Positions 5,100 to 31,644 of a DNA stretch of 32,000 nt are shown here, one piece after another. Origin of the DNA: Rhodobacter capsulatus SB 1003. GTDB taxonomy: Bacteria; Pseudomonadota; Alphaproteobacteria; Rhodobacterales; Rhodobacteraceae. Made by a program: the position numbers and the translations under genes. Location of the stretch: NCBI RefSeq assembly GCF_000021865.1, contig NC_014034.1, positions 2,790,001-2,822,000 of the forward strand, given 5' to 3'. Positions within the stretch are counted from its first letter, which is position 1. Every line of letters starts with the position of its first letter. The notes below the pieces were generated by a model that did no database searches, was not told where the DNA came from, and was given only the letters and a program-made list of their open reading frames with translations.

Positions 5100-6374
5100 T
5101 CAGCCAGCGGTCTTCGGTTCCTTTTTGCCCGAGGTCTCGGCGTAGATCAGCAAGGGCTTGGCGCCATTGGCCATTTCCACCGCCTCGTCATTCACCACCA
5201 CCTCGCGCACGCCTTCCATGCCCGGCAGTTCGAACATCGTGTCAAGCAGGATGTCCTCCATGATCGAGCGCAGGCCGCGCGCGCCGGTCTTGCGCTTGAT
5301 CGCGCGGGCGGCAATCGCCTTCATCGCATCGGGGGTGAAGGTCAGCTTCACGCCCTCGATCTCGAATAGCCGCTGGTATTGCTTGACCAGGGCGTTCTTC
5401 GGCTCGGTCAGGATCGTCACCAGCGCGGCTTCGTCCAGATCTTCCAGCGTCGCGATCACCGGCAGACGGCCGACGAATTCCGGGATCAGACCGAATTTCA
5501 GCAGATCTTCCGGCTCGAGTTCCTTGAACAGCTCGCCCGCGCCCCGCGATTCCGGGTCCTTCACATCGGCGCCAAAGCCGATCGCCGAACCCTTGCCGCG
5601 CTGCGCGATGATTCGATCCAGCCCCGCAAAGGCGCCGCCACAGATGAACAGGATGTTCGTCGTGTCCACCTGCAGGAATTCCTGCTGCGGATGCTTGCGC
5701 CCGCCCTGCGGCGGAACGCTGGCCACGGTGCCTTCCATGATCTTCAAAAGCGCCTGCTGCACCCCCTCGCCCGAGACATCGCGGGTGATCGAGGGGTTGT
5801 CCGACTTGCGGGTGATCTTGTCGACTTCGTCGATGTAGACGATGCCGCGCTGCGCCCGTTCGACGTTATATTCGCTGGCCTGCAGAAGCTTCAGGATGAT
5901 GTTTTCGACATCCTCGCCGACGTAACCGGCCTCGGTCAGCGTCGTCGCATCGGCCATGGTGAAGGGCACGTCCAGAATCCGCGCCAGCGTCTGGGCCAAG
6001 AGCGTCTTGCCGCAGCCGGTCGGACCGATCAGCAGGATGTTCGACTTCGCCAGTTCCACATCCTGTTTCGAGCCGTGGTTCAGACGCTTGTAATGGTTGT
6101 GCACCGCAACCGAGAGCACGCGCTTGGCATGCATCTGCCCGATCACGTAATCATCCAGCACCTTGCAGATGTCGCGCGGCGTCGGCACGCCATCCGTCGC
6201 CTTGAGACCGGTGGTCTTGGTCTCCTCGCGGATGATGTCCATGCACAACTCGACGCATTCATCACAGATGAACACGGTCGGACCCGCGATCAGCTTGCGC
6301 ACCTCGTGCTGGCTCTTGCCGCAGAACGAACAGTAGAGGGTGTTCTTGCTGTCGGAGCCGGAATTGTTCGCCAT
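5100..6374 (-). CDS. clpX: ATP-dependent Clp protease ATP-binding subunit ClpX
   Basis: N-terminal zinc-binding CSFCGK...CDECVELC. Walker [13 protein letters not shown] pore-2/ClpP-docking loop. ATG at 6374 (MANNSG...) has GAGG 6 nt upstream. The alternative ATG at 6380 abuts the SD sequence. Confidence 0.97.
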
Positions 6375-23100: not shown

Positions 23101-25392
23101 TCAGTTCGGCGTGTCGATGCGGATCACCACGTTGATCTTGCCCTTGGCGGCCTCGGGCCAGGTCACGTTGACCAGATTTTTCCCCGCGCCCTGCTCGGCG
23201 GTGATGAAGGGCATGGCCGTGACCCGGGCGCCCGCGGCATTGGTGATCGCCCCCACCGCCACCACGCTTTCGACATGCCGCGCCCAGCCGCCAAAGGGCA
23301 GATAGGCCGCGGCATCGGCGCTCCAGACCGATTGCGCGCTCGACTGCGTCACCTGCACCATCACCGGGTTCACCGTCATCTGGCTCACCGCGTTGAAAAT
23401 GTTGTTCTGGAACGTGATGTTGCGCATCCGCGCATAGTCGAGATCGGCAAAGCTCGTGTCCACCTTCTCGATCCGGTTGATGTTGCCGTTCAGCGCCTTG
23501 AAGACGTTGTTCGACACCGTCAGCCCCTGGATGTAATGGCCGCTGCCATAGGGCTTGATCGAGAGCCAGGTCACCCAGGCCGCGACATCATCCATGATGC
23601 AGGTGTTGCCGGTCATCGTCAGCCCGCCAAAGGAATATTGCGTGCCGAGGTTCGGATCGGGCGAATATTCGTTCGTCCATTCGATGAAGTTGTTGTCGAT
23701 GTAATTGCCGGTCACCGTCGATTGCACGTTGGGCGTGGTGAAGACCAGCCCCGGCACCCGCGGCCCGTCCACCTGCCCGTCGCCCTGGAACCAGTGGTTG
23801 CCCACGATCACATGGCCGGTGCCGTCCAGCACCATCGTCGTGCCGAAGCGCACGAAACGCGAATCGCGGATCTTGGTGTCATTCGCATTGACATTGACAC
23901 AGACCGAGGTCCGGTTCTCGACATTGACATCCAGCTCGTTCGACAGGAAATCGCAGCGGTCGATGTAGAGGTTCTGGCACCCCCGCCCGATCGAGGTGAT
24001 GGCGCGGTCCTTCGGCTTCACCATCCAGCAATCGCGCAGCCCGAACGTGTCGCCCTCGCGCGCCAGCAGGATGCCGCTTGCCACCCCGCCCAGCAGGAAT
24101 TCGACATTGTCGATGGTGAAGCGGGCCAGATAGTCGAAGCCGGAAAAATCAAGCGCGTATTTGTAGCGCCGGAACGTGTAGCTGCGCGTGCCCGAACCGC
24201 CGTAAAGCGGCTGCGACAGCGTCAGCTTGGCCGCGCCGGGATCGACCGCCAGCACATAGACCTCGCGGCCGACGCCGGTGCCGCTCACCCGCGCGCCGAC
24301 CGGGATGTTGGCGATATTCGTCACATTGCTCAGCGTCGTCGATTGCGACGTGGAATAGGTCGCGTTCGAGGTGACGGTGGTGGTGCTCCAGGCCGTGTTG
24401 TCGCTGACCGAGATCTGCCCGTTCGCCAGCACCCGCCGGTTCGACCAGCTCGAAGTATCGGGCACCGCCGCCTTGACATCGATCGGCCCGGTCAGATCGA
24501 CCCGCCGCCCGCACAGATCGAAGATGTTGTTGTCGGTATAGGACAAAAGCGCCTGCAACCCCTTCCTCAGCGCCAGTTCCTCGTCGCCGAAGGCCTTCGC
24601 ATAGGTCGGAAAGTCGAAATTCTTCTGCAGCACCAGCCGCGCCGCGGTCGGCATGATCAGCGTGCCGGTGAAGCGGATCGGGCTGTCGATCGAGAGCGAG
24701 GACCCGATGCGGTAGCTGCCCTCCGGCACGATCAGGCTGCGCCCGTCGGCGGCGGCATCGGCGGCCAGAAAGGCGGCGCGGTCATCGGTGGTGCCGTCGC
24801 CCTTGGCGCCATAGTCGCGCACATCGACCACATCCATCATGTCGCGCAGGAAAGCTTCGGTGATATCCTCGATGACGATATCCTCGATCCGCACCACGCC
24901 CCCGGTCTGCCCGGTCAGATCCAGCCCGAAATGGCCATAGACAGGCACCGTGCCCCAGGCCATGTCGACACCCGCGCGCGTGCCCGAGCCGACGATCGCC
25001 TGCACCGTCACCACCTTGCCATAGGTGGTCAGCGTGACCGGGCTGGCCACTTCGACCAGCCCGTTCACATGCGCATTCGCCGCGCTCATCGCATAGCCCG
25101 CGATCCGCACCGCGCAGAAATTGCCCGAGACCGCCTTCACCTTGGCGGTGATGCGCAGATAGACGCCGGGCAGGATCGGCGTCTGCCCCATCCAGCGCAG
25201 CTTCTGCGTGCTCTGGGTCTTGGTCATCTCCAGACAGGTGCCGAAATCGGCATCCGCCGGCACCAGCGCCGCATTCACGGCCCCCGCATAGGTGGCCGAT
25301 CCCGCCGTGCCATTCTCGCTCGACCATTGGCCCAGCCCCAGTTCGAAAGCAGAGGGGGTCAGGTTCACCCCATCGGTGATCGCGATGTTCAT
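23101..25392 (-). CDS. Orphan tailspike/tail-fibre-like protein: N-terminal jelly-roll (CBM-like) domain plus right-handed beta-helix (pectate-lyase-3-type) domain, no signal peptide
   Basis: ATG at 25390-25392 has AAGGAG 6 nt upstream, giving 763 aa. The N-terminus is MNIAITDGVNLTPSAFELGLGQWSSENG... (CBM4/9-like N-L-x-P-x-x-F-E-x-G-x-x-x-W). The VRDYGAKGDGTTDD motif (DYGAKGDG at nt 24793-24816) is typical of Pectate_lyase_3 / phage tailspike N-caps. Many N/G-rich beta-helix rungs are present (TGNYIDNNFIEW, TMTGNTCIMDD, VSNNVFKALNGNINRIE, ITFQNNIFNAV). There is no Sec/Tat leader. Confidence 0.8.
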   Translation of the reverse strand: MNIAITDGVNLTPSAFELGLGQWSSENGTAGSATYAGAVNAALVPADADFGTCLEMTKTQSTQKLRWMGQTPILPGVYLRITAKVKAVSGNFCAVRIAGYAMSAANAHVNGLVEVASPVTLTTYGKVVTVQAIVGSGTRAGVDMAWGTVPVYGHFGLDLTGQTGGVVRIEDIVIEDITEAFLRDMMDVVDVRDYGAKGDGTTDDRAAFLAADAAADGRSLIVPEGSYRIGSSLSIDSPIRFTGTLIMPTAARLVLQKNFDFPTYAKAFGDEELALRKGLQALLSYTDNNIFDLCGRRVDLTGPIDVKAAVPDTSSWSNRRVLANGQISVSDNTAWSTTTVTSNATYSTSQSTTLSNVTNIANIPVGARVSGTGVGREVYVLAVDPGAAKLTLSQPLYGGSGTRSYTFRRYKYALDFSGFDYLARFTIDNVEFLLGGVASGILLAREGDTFGLRDCWMVKPKDRAITSIGRGCQNLYIDRCDFLSNELDVNVENRTSVCVNVNANDTKIRDSRFVRFGTTMVLDGTGHVIVGNHWFQGDGQVDGPRVPGLVFTTPNVQSTVTGNYIDNNFIEWTNEYSPDPNLGTQYSFGGLTMTGNTCIMDDVAAWVTWLSIKPYGSGHYIQGLTVSNNVFKALNGNINRIEKVDTSFADLDYARMRNITFQNNIFNAVSQMTVNPVMVQVTQSSAQSVWSADAAAYLPFGGWARHVESVVAVGAITNAAGARVTAMPFITAEQGAGKNLVNVTWPEAAKGKINVVIRIDTPN

Positions 25393-25596
25393 CCGAAACT
25401 CCTTCGTGTTCGGCCCGCCCCAAGATGCGGCACGCAAAGGCCGGGCGCGGCGCAAACACGCCACGCGACCGCCACCGGCGCTCCGCAGGATCGGGGATTT
25501 CACCGGGCCATCACGCCCCGGCCAGACCAGACCTAGCCGTGAAAATTGAAGAAGATCTGACGACAGCGCGCGCTGCCCGGCCCCCGGACAACGCGC

Positions 25597-27808: not shown

Positions 27809-27837
27809 TTGACACCGCCCCATCGCGCCCCCATCTT
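27809..27837 (+). promoter_or_regulatory. Putative sigma-70 promoter for the riboswitch transcript
   Basis: TTGACA (27809-27814), a 17-nt spacer, then CATCTT (27832-27837). The predicted TSS is about 27844-27846, at the 5' edge of the riboswitch. Confidence 0.45.
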
Positions 27838-27842
27838 CAGCG

Positions 27843-28006
27843 GGCCTTGGTCCTGCGGCACGCCGCCGCGGGGTAATAGGGAAGCCGGTGCAACTCCGGC
27901 GCTGCCCCCGCAACTGTCAGCGGCAAGCCTTCTGCAACACCCACTGGCCCCGGCCGGGAAGGGGCAGCAGGCGCCCGAGCCGCAAGCCAGGAGACCTGCC
28001 AGGCCA
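27843..28006 (+). promoter_or_regulatory. Cobalamin (B12) riboswitch
   Basis: The conserved core is AATAGGGAAGCCGGTGCAACTCCGGCGCTGCCCCCGCAACTGTCAGCGG (27875-27923). The B12-box is AAGCCAGGAGACCTGCC (27984-28000), preceded by CCACTGGCCCCGGCCGGGAAGGGGC. It sits upstream of ATG 28102. Confidence 0.9.
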
Positions 28007-28101
28007 AAGACCATCCCGGGCGGCGGGCCCGGAGGCATGGACCCCGCTTGCGCGGGCCGCGCCTGTCCGCCCTCGGCCCGACACAACGGAGCGGCCAGGC
28101 C

Positions 28102-28446
28102 ATGGAACCGAAAGACACGACAACGAACACCGCCTTCAAGGGCTACACGAACAGCACCTGCCCGTTCCTGCCCTGCCATCCGGGGGTGAAGCGCGCCTTC
28201 AACTGCCTGTTTTGCTACTGCCCGCTCATCGCCTATGAATGCCCCGGTCCCTATCAGACCTACACCGACCGCAACGGCTTGACGCGCAAGGATTGTTCCG
28301 CCTGCACCCTGCCCCATGACGGCTACGAGCAATCCTGGAACTTCATCCAGAAATGGCTCGACTATCCGCAGCCCTGGTCGGGCAAGCCGCAGACCGAGCC
28401 GCCCACCCCGCGCCCCCGTCCGCCGGGGGCAACCGATCAGCCGTAA
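28102..28446 (+). CDS. Cysteine-rich small protein (8 Cys + 2 His in 53 residues), function unknown, under the B12 riboswitch
   Basis: ATG 28102 with ACGGAG at 28086-28091. The sequence is MEPKDTTTNTAFKGYTNSTCPFLPCHPGVKRAFNCLFCYCPLIAYECPGPYQTYTDRNGLTRKDCSACTLPHDG..., with Cys at residues 20, 25, 35, 38, 40, 47, 65 and 68 and His at 26 and 72. It resembles my recollection of the 'cysteine-rich small domain' family. The tail is Pro-rich. Confidence 0.75.
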   Translation: MEPKDTTTNTAFKGYTNSTCPFLPCHPGVKRAFNCLFCYCPLIAYECPGPYQTYTDRNGLTRKDCSACTLPHDGYEQSWNFIQKWLDYPQPWSGKPQTEPPTPRPRPPGATDQP

Positions 28447-29885
28447 AGCGTCGCCCAGCGGGTGATGAGCTGGCTCTGCAGCAGTTTCGAACGCCCGACC
28501 CAGCCGCGCGAGCCCTCCGCCTGCTCGGCCTCGCGCGATTGCGCCCGCCGCGCCAGATCGCCGGTGAAGATCGCAAAGGTCAGCTCGGTGCCGTCGGGCG
28601 CCGTGATATAGCCGGTCAGCGTCGAGACGAAATTCAGCGTCCCGGTCTTCGCATCGACGCGGATCTGCGCGCCCTTGACCTTGCCGCCCGCCTCGTCGCG
28701 CAGGTTGAACGGCTTCATCAGGCCCCGCAGCCCGACCTTCGGCCCCAAAAGCGTCACCGCCCTGACCATCTCGATCGGCGCGATCCGGTCATCGCCGCCC
28801 AGACCCGAATGATCGACGAACCGCGCCCGCGTGCCGCCCAGCCGCCCGCTCAGCCAGTCGCTCATCGCCGCGCCCGAAGCGCCGCGCGCCGCATTCGCCC
28901 CCCGCGCCGCCGAGGCCGTCATCCCCACCGCCTCGGCGGTGATGTTGGTCGAATATTTCATCATCGAGCGCAGGATCTTCGGCAGCGCCTCCGAGGGCTG
29001 GCCGACCAGAACCCGCGCCCCCGCAGGCAGCGCCCGCACCGGCTCGGGGGCGGGCAGATCAATGCCGCGCGCCCGCGCCAGCGTCTGGAACACGTCGCCC
29101 GCATAGGCCTCGGGCAGCCGCACCGGCAGCCAGCGGCTGCCATCCTTGCCCAGCGCGCTTGCCGCCACCGTCCAATGCTCGCGCCCGCCCGCCTGCCGAT
29201 ACTCGAACAGCGGCGCCTGCCGCGCCACCGCCGCCACATCGGCCGTATAGACCTTGGGCACATGGCGCTCGGAGCGCGCATCCATCGCCAGCGCATAGCC
29301 GCCCTTGGCCCGCTTCCATTCGAAATGGACGCGGTTGTAATTCAGGATCAGCCCGGAAATCGCCGGGTTGTAGCCCACATGCACCGGCTGATCGGCCGCG
29401 ATCGCCTCGGCATAGGGCAGCGCGCCGCCCCAGACCAGAAACCGCCCGCGCACGCCCGTCACCCCCTGTTGCGCCAGCGCCGCCGCCAGATCGGCCAGCC
29501 CGTCGGTGCTCAGCGTCGGATCGCCGCCCCCCGCCAGGATCAGATCGCCCTCGACCCGCCCGCCCGAGACCGGCCCCGTCGCCAGCACCCGGGTCTGAAA
29601 GCGGAACTGCGGCCCCAGCGTTTCCAGCGCATAAAGCGTGGTGATCGCCTTCGCGGTCGAGGCGGGCGCCATCGGCTTGCCGCCATCGCGCGCCTCCAGC
29701 ACCAGCCCGCTGCGCGCATCGGCCACCACATAGCCGACATCGCCGCCCAGCCGCGCCGCCGCGATCAGCTCCTCGCCCGACAGCAGTCGCAGCGCCGCAC
29801 CCTCGGCCCGCAGCACCGCGGGCGTGGCCAGACCGGCCCCCACCCCCAGCATCCCGCCCAGGATCCCCCGCCGCGTCACGTCCAT
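28437..29885 (-). CDS. dacB: D-alanyl-D-alanine carboxypeptidase/endopeptidase (PBP4, peptidase S13) with Tat-type signal
   Basis: [27 protein letters not shown] (twin-arginine leader). SxxK is [11 protein letters not shown] is DAKTGTL. ATG at 29883-29885 with GGGAG upstream. The 743-aa track ORF is an open-frame extension through nadD. Confidence 0.9.
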
Positions 29886-30582: not shown

Positions 30583-31644
30583 TCAGGTCTGCGACCGCGA
30601 CCCGAAGCGCAAGGGCGCGATCGTCCAGCGCCCGCGCCCGGCGCGTTTCGATTGATACATCGCCGCATCGGCCTCGGCCATCAGCTCCTCGGCCAGCGCG
30701 GGACGGCATTCCAGCGCGATCGCCACCCCGATCGAGGCCGAAATCCGGCAATCCACCCCGTCCAGCCGGATCGGCTCCTCGATCCGGCCGATCAGCCGCT
30801 CGGCCATGGCCTCGATCATCGACCGCTCGACCGGGCCGCGCAGCAGGATGATGAATTCGTCGCCGCCCAGCCGCGCCACCAGATCGCCGCGGCGCACCTC
30901 GTCGCGCAGCACATGCGCCGCCCGCACCAGCACCGCATCGCCCGCCGCATGGCCCAGGGTGTCGTTGACCTGCTTGAAGAAATCCAGATCGAGATGCAAA
31001 AGCGCAAAGTTCCGCCGCCCACGCGTCGCCGATTTGACCGCATGGCCCAGCGCCGCATCGAAGGCACGCCGGTTCGCCAGCCCGGTCAGCGGATCCAGCT
31101 GCGCCTCGGTCTCGGCCTCGGCCTTGGCCAGCCGCAGCCGCCCGGTCAGGGCGGTCAGCTCGCCCAGAACCGCCGCCTTCGCCTCGGCCAGAAACAGGAA
31201 TTCCATCGCCAGATCGGAAGCGGCGAAATCCGCCTCGGTCAGGCCGAAATAGCGCACCGCCTCGGACAGCTGGATGCCAAAGGACAGGTTCACCAGCACA
31301 TCGGCCTGTTCGCCCGGGCCCAGCGCCACCGCAAGACCGCGCAGGTTGAACATCGGATAGCGCACCAGCGTCATCACCAGCCGCCGCCCGGTCAGCGCGA
31401 CCTCGCGCCCGGGCTCGACGCCCCGGGCCCGGCGCAGGGTGAAATGGCGGGCGAAATCCGCCCCCTCCGCCCGCTCCGGCCCCTGACCGACGATCCGCGC
31501 CAGCGTCGGCCCCATGGCGCGGATCCGCCCGCGCGCATCCAGCCACAGAAACATCGGCATCAGCCGCGCCAGCATCTCGGTGTTCAGCGTCAGCACCGGC
31601 TCCGGCGCCGGGACCGACGCGGCCACGGGCAGGATCCGGGTCAT
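30583..31644 (-). CDS. Diguanylate cyclase (N-terminal sensory/PAS-like domain, coiled coil, GGDEF domain with RxxD I-site)
   Basis: DPLTGLANRRAFD...EVRRGDLVARLGGDEFIILL has both the RxxD I-site and the GGDEF active site. The ATG overlaps the upstream H-NOX stop (ATGA at 31641-31644). Confidence 0.9.
   Translation of the reverse strand: MTRILPVAASVPAPEPVLTLNTEMLARLMPMFLWLDARGRIRAMGPTLARIVGQGPERAEGADFARHFTLRRARGVEPGREVALTGRRLVMTLVRYPMFNLRGLAVALGPGEQADVLVNLSFGIQLSEAVRYFGLTEADFAASDLAMEFLFLAEAKAAVLGELTALTGRLRLAKAEAETEAQLDPLTGLANRRAFDAALGHAVKSATRGRRNFALLHLDLDFFKQVNDTLGHAAGDAVLVRAAHVLRDEVRRGDLVARLGGDEFIILLRGPVERSMIEAMAERLIGRIEEPIRLDGVDCRISASIGVAIALECRPALAEELMAEADAAMYQSKRAGRGRWTIAPLRFGSRSQT

Follow-up and report, generated by a model that had tools for sequence, protein, structure and literature searches.

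A cobalamin riboswitch precedes a lone gene for a small cysteine-rich protein with a likely role in cobamide metabolism in Rhodobacter capsulatus

Two Sulfurospirillum papers are the only ones in which we found mention of the function or expression of the protein family PF04071 (“Cysteine-rich small domain”). SMUL_1548, encoded in the norcobamide cluster of Sulfurospirillum multivorans, is a 10-kDa, eight-cysteine protein without an assigned function that was detected solely in soluble fractions of cells grown with tetrachloroethene (PCE), and Goris et al. proposed in 2015 that it “might be redox-active” (PMC4585668). Its mRNA is elevated by a log2 fold change of 7.16 together with the whole cobamide cluster (PMC7755780). 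Another family member, MMP0231 of Methanococcus maripaludis, is listed as possibly essential by one transposon-sequencing method (PMC4418687). Some databases already attach the label “cobalamine-related hypothetical metal-binding protein CrdX” to orthologs of the family, including those in Rhodospirillum rubrum, Cereibacter sphaeroides, Rhodobium, Blastochloris, and Roseibacterium. The name is an annotation label: we found no paper describing or testing CrdX, no functional study of the PF04071/CrdX family, and none on a riboswitch-crdX unit. Here we describe such a unit in Rhodobacter capsulatus SB 1003, in which a cobalamin (vitamin B12) riboswitch stands upstream of a single crdX gene. It lies within the 32,000-nucleotide (nt) stretch of contig NC_014034.1 from position 2,790,001 to 2,822,000 that was analyzed as a whole and is called “the window” below.

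The overall explanation that we favor, and regard as reasonably probable, is that crdX encodes a B12-repressed metal-cluster protein that belongs to the supply side of cobamide metabolism, where it is probably a redox partner. The components of this proposal differ in strength. Judged from the sequence, it is very likely that a functional B12 OFF riboswitch controls crdX alone, and likely that CrdX works in cobamide metabolism. The assignment of a role specifically in redox chemistry or electron transfer is tentative. The link of this family to B12 is not new, and the unit is a standard riboswitch placed before a family already flagged as B12 related. What is new here, as it emerges from the comparison of loci, is a phototroph-specific long subfamily and its linkage to bchE, cobQ, and metH.

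When the 32-kb window was scanned against Rfam with cmscan, the RF00174 Cobalamin family was the sole match. The element reaches 122 bits, where the gathering score is 31.5 (E = 2.1e-30), and spans model positions 1-189 of 189 without truncation. A preliminary description of this DNA, prepared by reading the letters alone, had proposed a canonical B12 riboswitch with its core and B12 box and had recommended an Infernal/Rfam search; the search places the element well above the family threshold, and both motifs are present. The conserved aptamer core GGGAAGCCGGTGCAACTCCGGCGCTGCCCCCGCAACTGT at 27879-27917 reads GGGAA..GGUGCAA.UCC..GCUGCCCCCGCAACUGU and aligns with the Rfam consensus, and GCCAGGAGACCUGCC falls inside the B12 box, where the consensus alignment also holds. 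Aptamer and crdX share one strand, with 85 nt between the 3′ end of the former and the start of the latter, and an RF00174 element is found as well in four other R. capsulatus assemblies (all four of the loci that were fetched). Given this full-length, high-scoring match and its retention in the four assemblies, we rejected the idea that the riboswitch is a decayed relic.

The unit had been taken to start at 27809, where a TTGACA hexamer begins; this hexamer is unchanged in the window and in two relatives, R. capsulatus SP18 and Cereibacter. The promoter function of the TTGACA region is presumptive, because a consensus scan of the window leader gave no full sigma-70 match. In the available portion of a report on R. 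capsulatus small RNAs, RNA sequencing yielded small transcripts matching five cobalamin riboswitches, none of which could be mapped to the crdX locus.

The open reading frame (ORF) downstream of the riboswitch encodes a protein of 114 amino acids (aa) with the pattern C20-x4-C25-H26, N34-C35-x2-C38-x-C40, C47, and C65-x2-C68-x3-H72, followed by a Pro-rich tail, just as the preliminary description had it. The family that this description had named was also the correct one: PF04071 is the sole Pfam match (46.9 bits versus a cutoff of 27, residues 14-74), and no NCBIfam model matches the protein. In our alignments of 25 sequences (A1), of 19 sequences including distant ones (A4), and of 74 sequences (A5), the ten ligands C20, C25, H26, C35, C38, C40, C47, C65, C68, and H72 never vary across the range from purple bacteria to Clostridia, nor do P24, P41, and G49. 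These ligands occupy a stretch of about 55 residues inside a conserved core of about 75 aa and most likely hold two metal centers, Fe-S and/or Zn. The ratio of nonsynonymous to synonymous substitution rates (dN/dS) for crdX is 0.10 relative to the R. capsulatus SP18 ortholog (93% identical) and 0.12 relative to Cereibacter, whereas shifted-frame controls of the same DNA give values above 3. By this measure crdX is a real gene under purifying selection, and an identical protein is encoded in many R. capsulatus assemblies. The possibility that CrdX is itself a B12-independent isozyme such as MetE, NrdDG, or NrdEF was rejected because a protein of 114 aa is too small, with PF04071 as the only Pfam match and no match in NCBIfam.

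The common neighborhood in R. capsulatus consists of lysK (class I lysyl-tRNA synthetase), a TerB-domain gene, crdX, a convergent dacB, nadD, and a GGDEF gene. The 3′ ends of crdX and dacB, the latter called as 482 aa in identical R. capsulatus loci, overlap by 10 nt (28437-28446). Because of this overlap with a convergent gene, crdX is the only cargo of the riboswitch, and the unit is monocistronic. No intrinsic-terminator-like site was found between the aptamer and crdX, nor on the plus strand downstream before position 30628. A B12-dependent crdX transcript could read antisense into dacB and nadD, a distance of about 2.2 kb without a terminator-like site.

One might propose from the 10-nt overlap and the terminator-free plus strand that CrdX is incidental and that the transcript acts as a B12-dependent antisense RNA, or by transcriptional interference, against dacB, and antisense RNAs under B12 riboswitch control have a precedent in Listeria. 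We consider this extremely improbable, since crdX is under strong purifying selection, the riboswitch is kept with crdX in genera that have an entirely different downstream gene, and dacB synteny is seen only in R. capsulatus among the loci examined.

Just beyond the aptamer lies a hairpin (Table 1) that, together with its 3′ flank, is identical in Cereibacter, and the remaining leader diverges. The leaders from Rhodopseudomonas, Rhodoplanes, and “Rhodovulum” sp. PH10 have a different stem (TTCGAC-GGYGG-GTCGAA) and retain the GGYGG loop. Across nine distinct alphaproteobacterial B12 leaders, a small, hand-made alignment of related sequences, 92.6% of the cells are paired and compensatory changes occur in four of the six pairs; the covariation score was matched by none of 500 shuffles, and slid controls scored lower. 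The crdX start codon is located about 70 nt past this hairpin.

These features suggest how the switch might operate. Transcription from a promoter near 27809 would pass through the adenosylcobalamin-type riboswitch and the regulatory hairpin into crdX, forming a monocistronic, B12-repressed unit, and when cobalamin is plentiful, the ligand-bound leader would turn crdX off. Ligand binding may stabilize the hairpin region and so block ribosome loading beside it, in which case crdX output would drop via lost translation, possibly augmented by Rho-dependent polarity. As no intrinsic terminator was found, the leader probably acts by occluding the region where ribosomes bind, and Rho-dependent polarity may or may not contribute.

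The ATG that follows the hairpin could open a leader ORF of 50 codons (28037-28189) that runs into crdX out of frame. With a spacing of just 1 nt in GGAGG-C-ATG, a function for this leader ORF in the window is doubtful. We also rejected a conserved N-terminal extension of CrdX, because the post-hairpin ATG shares the crdX frame in Cereibacter and Rhodovulum imhoffii but not in the window. A good Shine-Dalgarno sequence and a 5-7 codon upstream ORF (uORF; for example MTEFS*, MYTRS*, MPIRS*, and MIIRV*) follow the hairpin in the leaders from Rhodopseudomonas, Rhodoplanes, and “Rhodovulum” sp. PH10. Such uORFs are found at about 5840-5870 in locus L010 and about 5745-5775 in L012, just 3′ of the aptamers in L024 and L036, and also with minus-strand riboswitches in L013 and L012. 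The main gene begins 100-300 nt further 3′ in the uORF-bearing leaders, an arrangement that suggests riboswitch control via a leader peptide in these organisms, for which we are aware of no earlier description.

Table 1. Coordinates of the riboswitch-crdX unit and its convergent neighbor in the window
Feature	Position	Strand	Basis
TTGACA, -35-like hexamer of the presumed riboswitch-crdX promoter	27809-27814	+	Read from sequence
Cobalamin riboswitch aptamer, classical adenosylcobalamin-type model including the P6 extension	27831-28017	+	RF00174 covariance model
CATCTT, weak -10 candidate	27832-27837	+	Read from sequence
B12 box AAGCCAGGAGACCTGCC	27984-28000	+	Read from sequence; aligned with conserved GCCAGGAGACCuGCC of the Rfam consensus
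Post-aptamer hairpin CCGGGC-GGCGG-GCCCGG, P13-like, probably the regulatory helix of the expression platform	28016-28032	+	Conservation and covariation
Shine-Dalgarno-like GGAGG overlapping the 3′ arm of the hairpin, then ATG at 28037	28031-28039	+	Read from sequence
crdX Shine-Dalgarno sequence (GGAG), preceding the ATG by 10 nt	28088-28091	+	Read from sequence
crdX; its product is a PF04071 (“Cysteine-rich small domain”) protein of 114 aa in which 8 Cys and 2 His are invariant	28102-28446	+	Pfam, alignments, dN/dS
dacB (penicillin-binding protein 4, Peptidase_S13), convergent with crdX, end of unit	28437-29885	-	PF02113, 193 bits; TIGR00666, 163 bits

Homologs of CrdX were collected by several searches. 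A word-index search gave 132 close homologs, all of them small single-domain PF04071 proteins. Among 1.8 billion cluster representatives, a profile search returned 823 matches at E ≤ 1e-3 and just 10 at E ≤ 1e-30, and a second profile search places at least 7,997 clusters at 90% identity in the family. From these counts, PF04071 is a large family in which the long CrdX subfamily is small. In our sample, and among the matches listed, every named organism with the long form is an anoxygenic phototrophic proteobacterium. Alphaproteobacteria contribute Rhodobacter, Cereibacter, Rhodovulum, Rhodospirillum, Pararhodospirillum, Rhodopseudomonas, Rhodoplanes, Rhodoblastus, Rhodomicrobium, Blastochloris, Rhodobium, Phaeospirillum, Roseospira, Rhodospira, Elioraea, and Roseibacterium; Betaproteobacteria contribute Rubrivivax and Rhodocyclus; and Gammaproteobacteria contribute Chromatiaceae, Ectothiorhodospira, and Halorhodospira. 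Species-representative genomes, scanned as a sample rather than a census, show the same division: among the matches listed, the best 33 loci (at least 54% identity) are all from purple phototrophs, and below them identity falls to 44% or less in Clostridia, Coriobacteriia, and others. Of 72,556 plasmids searched, the ones with a copy belong solely to Cereibacter and a few anaerobes. As sampled, the PF04071 family as a whole is found only in anaerobes and purple phototrophs.

To compare gene contexts, ORFs within about 6 kb of crdX were clustered in 36 purple loci, and cluster representatives as well as further individual neighbors were annotated with Pfam and NCBIfam; three further purple loci with precomputed Pfam annotation bring the nonredundant total to 39. 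In 11 of these 39 loci, crdX stands under a B12 riboswitch. In ten, the riboswitch is directly upstream on the same strand: R. capsulatus, Cereibacter (two species-level loci, with a riboswitch score of 124 bits), Rhodovulum imhoffii, R. bhavnagarense, Rhodopseudomonas pentothenatexigens, Rps. pseudopalustris, “Rhodovulum” sp. PH10, Rhodoplanes elegans, and Rubrivivax gelatinosus DSM 1709. Chromatiales loci that were scanned carry no same-strand riboswitch upstream of crdX, and the sole match there (Halorhodospira) is divergent. The riboswitch of Rubrivivax gelatinosus DSM 1709 (L020) scores 59.9 bits, and a tetrapyrrole methylase gene follows crdX in this locus. Strain IM 151 (L023) is without the riboswitch and has crdX convergent with cobQ genes, such that the locus is rearranged within one named species.

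The eleventh case is an operon in Rps. faecalis (L013 2742-6327) composed of a riboswitch, nrdD (PF13597), an nrdG-like radical S-adenosylmethionine (SAM) gene, and crdX. Given the gap of 54 nt before it, crdX forms the distal end of a B12-repressed operon for class III ribonucleotide reductase (RNR). This 12-kb locus carries three cobalamin riboswitches. B12 riboswitches gate B12-independent isozymes, and the position of crdX as the third gene after nrdD and nrdG would suit a protein that serves B12-independent back-up enzymes, for example as electron donor to the NrdG activase of class III RNR, and that is made only when B12 is scarce, like metE or nrdDG. This explanation is highly unlikely for the family, because the arrangement occurs in one locus only, most contexts instead feature cob or btu genes or B12-dependent enzymes, and the fusions described below involve enzymes of cobamide biosynthesis.

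Genes for both making and using B12 are found near crdX. The cyclase gene bchE, which encodes a B12-dependent radical-SAM enzyme of bacteriochlorophyll synthesis (TIGR02026, 744-803 bits), is adjacent or nearby in seven loci; cobQ, for cobyric acid synthase (NF001989, 590-617 bits), is found no more than 6 kb from crdX in about 16 of the 39; and metH, for the five-domain B12-dependent methionine synthase, is directly downstream of crdX and co-oriented in ten Chromatiaceae loci. The order bchE-cobQ-crdX-metH-btuF is found in Thiorhodococcus, Chromatium, and Thiocystis, and crdX-bchE-cobQ-cobQ in Rhodospirillum rubrum (L089 5042-10488) and Ectothiorhodospira (L090 6001-11472). In L030, L034, and L038 (Chromatiaceae), L089, and L090, B12 users and suppliers are clustered with no riboswitch within 6 kb. 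Tandem cobQ genes are present in Cereibacter (L001 8638-11701, minus strand), R. rubrum (L089 7384-10488, plus strand), and Ectothiorhodospira (L090 8345-11472, plus strand); both copies of the first two pairs score well over the NCBIfam cutoff for cobyric acid synthase (579-614 bits), and the third pair was seen at the Pfam domain level only.

Other neighbors include btuF-like binding proteins with an ABC ATPase, cobB plus a tetrapyrrole methylase gene (Rhodoblastus), cysG (Halorhodospira), a cobT-like gene (Elioraea), a CobC-like phosphatase (Rps. pentothenatexigens), and, directly upstream of crdX in a gammaproteobacterial metagenome-assembled genome, the B12-dependent class II RNR gene nrdJ. 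Three apparent neighbor clusters (“RNase_T 440-aa,” “127-aa,” and “289-aa”) were discarded as alternative-frame ORFs over cobQ or a tetrapyrrole-methylase gene. In total, about 32 of the 39 purple loci have at least one B12-linked feature. None was seen in L005, which has a riboswitch remnant only, in L015 and L016, which are truncated contigs, or in L017, L025, and L026/L091. Among 46 loci from anaerobes, co-oriented neighbors include CbiA, CobU, CobS, CobT, CobC, TP-methylases, CbiJ-CbiET, BtuF, and FecCD.

These contexts bear on two earlier statements. That no cob, cbi, or btu gene follows crdX, whose transcript runs head-on into dacB, is true in the window but does not hold as a generality, since most relatives have such genes adjacent. 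That CrdX has an uncharacterized, corrinoid-related function gains from the riboswitch pairing, the B12 neighbors, the Cob fusions, and a position between cobT and cobS, although the B12 link had already been made by the CrdX label and by Goris et al. The expectation that homologs associate with corrinoid genes or riboswitches is borne out as an enrichment. In identical R. capsulatus loci, precomputed Pfam annotation assigns a Pect-lyase_RHGA_epim domain to an ORF of about 763-800 aa beside lysK (window 23101-25503, minus strand), which is unrelated to crdX.

The Cereibacter crdX region also holds riboswitch-controlled cbiM and cobW genes. Cobalt transporters are commonly under B12 riboswitches, and a Cys/His-rich protein sharing such a region might be a cobalt buffer, store, or metallochaperone that is co-regulated with cobalt uptake at low B12. 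We find this explanation very unlikely, given that the associations are with late, post-cobalt steps (cobQ, cobT, cobS, and cobC) and with B12 users rather than chelatases, and that no fusion with CobN, CbiK, CbiX, or CobW was seen.

Two kinds of fusion among distant PF04071 members score above the curated cutoffs, one with CobT (TIGR03160, 359 bits; cutoff 319) and one with a CbiJ-fragment/CbiE protein (TIGR02467, 121 bits; cutoff 93). CobD-like and CobC-like partners are best matches that remain below cutoff, and a PF04071-GNAT fusion is also present. On a Sulfurospirillum plasmid, the gene order is cbiB, cobD-like, cobU, cbiP, cobT, an 85-aa PF04071 gene, cobS, cobC, cbiK, and btuCDF, with overlapping stop and start codons. 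Both these fusions and the gene orders cobT-crdX-cobS and cobQ-crdX suggest a place among the later steps of the cobamide pathway. A gene that is OFF at high B12 groups with supply genes or with B12-independent back-ups, and this logic does not fit a helper needed only while B12 enzymes are active. An activator specific to BchE was set aside for the same reason and because the family also occurs in nonphototrophs.

Based on these arrangements, we propose that CrdX, a small and soluble protein, works on the supply side of cobamide metabolism. It would be an accessory redox (electron-transfer) partner, both in reductive steps around late cobamide assembly and in the activation of B12 and radical-SAM enzymes. 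The reactivation of MetH, the radical-SAM enzymes BchE and NrdG, and the reduction of Co(II) to Co(I) before CobQ are classic clients of flavodoxin or ferredoxin in Escherichia coli and Salmonella. MetH, BchE, NrdG, and Co(I)-dependent adenosylation each need a low-potential one-electron donor, which is flavodoxin in E. coli and Salmonella. Some family members have redox neighbors: in Ilyobacter, a PF04071 gene follows trxB in a thioredoxin/flavodoxin/peroxiredoxin cluster, and in Phaeospirillum crdX follows a Redoxin gene. The shared need for an electron donor, these contexts, the ten ligands, and the restriction to anaerobes and purple phototrophs make a small metal-cluster redox partner the best single, if tentative, hypothesis.

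The main competitor of the redox-partner proposal is that CrdX is a Zn-binding structural adaptor or corrinoid chaperone, which would tether intermediates among CobT, CobU, CobS, CobC, and CbiB, or deliver cobamide to MetH, BchE, and NrdJ, without transferring electrons. None of the fused CobT, CobC-like, and CobD-like domains is redox active, the cobT-cobS placement with overlapping codons would suit an adaptor, and crdX adjoins B12 users (metH, bchE, and nrdJ) as well as btuF. “Zn-finger protein” appears in JGI/COG-style names, and an AlphaFold2 model of CrdX built from the 74-sequence alignment (predicted local distance difference test, pLDDT, 83.7; predicted template-modeling score, pTM, 0.70) shows two CxxC knuckles beside a β-hairpin, as is typical of zinc ribbons. 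This model otherwise predicts scant regular secondary structure, with the hairpin at 52-64 and one helix at 75-86, as expected because the fold would be held by its metal sites.

Comparison with solved structures does not favor the adaptor or chaperone. Foldseek searches of the Protein Data Bank (PDB) with this model gave a best E of 1.8 and TM ≤ 0.18, and for an earlier model (pLDDT 71.5) no match went below E = 1.2. The few ribosomal zinc-ribbon rows span just 16-20 columns and do not amount to a zinc-ribbon or zinc-finger fold, and PDB sequence-profile searches with A1 and A5 returned noise only. Because both kinds of search were empty, CrdX has a fold without a solved relative, and no match to a zinc-finger or chaperone structure was obtained. 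Moreover, a core of about 75 aa that is mostly ten metal ligands offers little surface for a corrinoid of 1.3-1.6 kDa, and the restriction to anaerobes and purple phototrophs suits an O2-sensitive cofactor better than a Zn site. We therefore regard the adaptor or chaperone as unlikely, and continue with the redox partner as the preferred reading.

Several observations weigh against the overall proposal. The fusion partners CobT, CobC, and CobD catalyze nonredox steps. CrdX has no Fer4-type or other Fe-S Pfam match at E ≤ 0.01, and its Cys spacing is not CxxCxxCxxxCP, which rules out membership in the 2x[4Fe-4S] ferredoxins, not an Fe-S cofactor. With respect to context, neighbor calls in unannotated loci rest on crude ORF calling, several purple loci (L017, L025, and L026/L091) have no nearby B12 gene, and cob or btu genes make up only about 20% of immediate neighbors in gut anaerobes; given this share of roughly one-fifth, the B12 association is a strong enrichment and not a rule. 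With respect to regulation, the minimum-free-energy folds of the leader are no better than those of shuffled sequence (z = 0.61 and -0.04), so that thermodynamic folds alone neither support nor refute the ribosome-blocking model, and in the window and Cereibacter leaders there is no convincing complementarity between the GGYGG hairpin loop and the L5 loop, such as a kissing-loop model calls for. About two-thirds of the purple loci are without a riboswitch at crdX. Furthermore, the SP18 lineage (L005 5849-6000) has deleted the riboswitch and kept crdX: Rfam finds nothing there, and the leader is about 140 nt shorter than window 27809-28101, with the aptamer core and B12 box gone. SP18 retains the TerB-crdX-dacB synteny, the TTGACA hexamer, the 5′ portion of the leader, and an intact crdX gene, and it is a natural riboswitch-less allele that should express crdX constitutively.

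A bolder version of the redox-partner proposal can be formulated. CrdX could be a general electron carrier of cobamide metabolism with a previously unseen fold, which keeps corrinoid cobalt reduced or primes the CobA/CobO step, MetH, BchE, and NrdG. The long form in purple bacteria would then couple B12 supply to bacteriochlorophyll synthesis, and the alphaproteobacterial riboswitch may act via a leader ORF instead of directly at the ribosome-binding site of crdX. As a whole, this scenario is speculative and rather doubtful.

The locus bears on the helper functions of cobamide biosynthesis and, for most bacteria, on the question of which in vivo reductants serve cobalt and the activation of MetH and BchE. 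The PF04071 family is large and has ten invariant metal ligands, every line of comparative evidence on it points to B12, and R. capsulatus offers the cleanest test case, with one gene and one riboswitch in a genetically tractable organism. B12 shortage can be read visibly in this species, because lost BchE activity blocks bacteriochlorophyll synthesis, and the SP18 lineage supplies a natural riboswitch-loss variant for comparison. If CrdX were required for the supply or activation of B12, it would be a new component of a textbook pathway, with relevance for engineering B12 production and for annotating the cobamide operons of gut bacteria and methanogens. The value of the locus would thus lie in a clean, tractable entry point to a widespread, uncharacterized, and apparently cobamide-associated metalloprotein.

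Among known systems, the leader is most like the RF00174 leaders of proteobacterial cob, btu, and nrdDG genes (for example, E. coli btuB), with which it shares the full-length model, the B12 box, and placement in the 5′ leader on the same strand. Sister RF00174 copies in neighboring loci precede cbiM, nrdDG, and unannotated ORFs. Its cargo sets it apart from the known leaders: a single small protein takes the place of an operon for biosynthesis or transport or of a known isozyme. The published counterpart of the protein itself is SMUL_1548, with only 37% identity over the aligned part, and an identically placed protein of Sulfurospirillum sp. “SP” matches the family profile (HHalign 99.8%) with all ligands kept. 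Unlike crdX, the SMUL_1548 gene lies between cobT and cobS in a PCE-induced operon without a riboswitch of its own, and its product lacks two features of the purple-bacterial subfamily, the C-terminal helix extension (W-x-F-I-Q-K-W-L) and the Pro-rich tail.

The resemblance to flavodoxin and ferredoxin (FldA of E. coli and Salmonella) is a functional analogy only: the enzymes encoded beside crdX are typical clients of these carriers, and CrdX has no sequence or fold relationship with them, no Pfam match, and no Foldseek match. The comparison with CobW, a cobalt metallochaperone regulated by B12 riboswitches, is of another kind. Although CobW is a GTPase of about 400 aa (PF02492) and CrdX is a 75-aa Cys/His core without a nucleotide-binding motif, both would appear to be accessory metal-binding proteins of the alphaproteobacterial B12 regulon.

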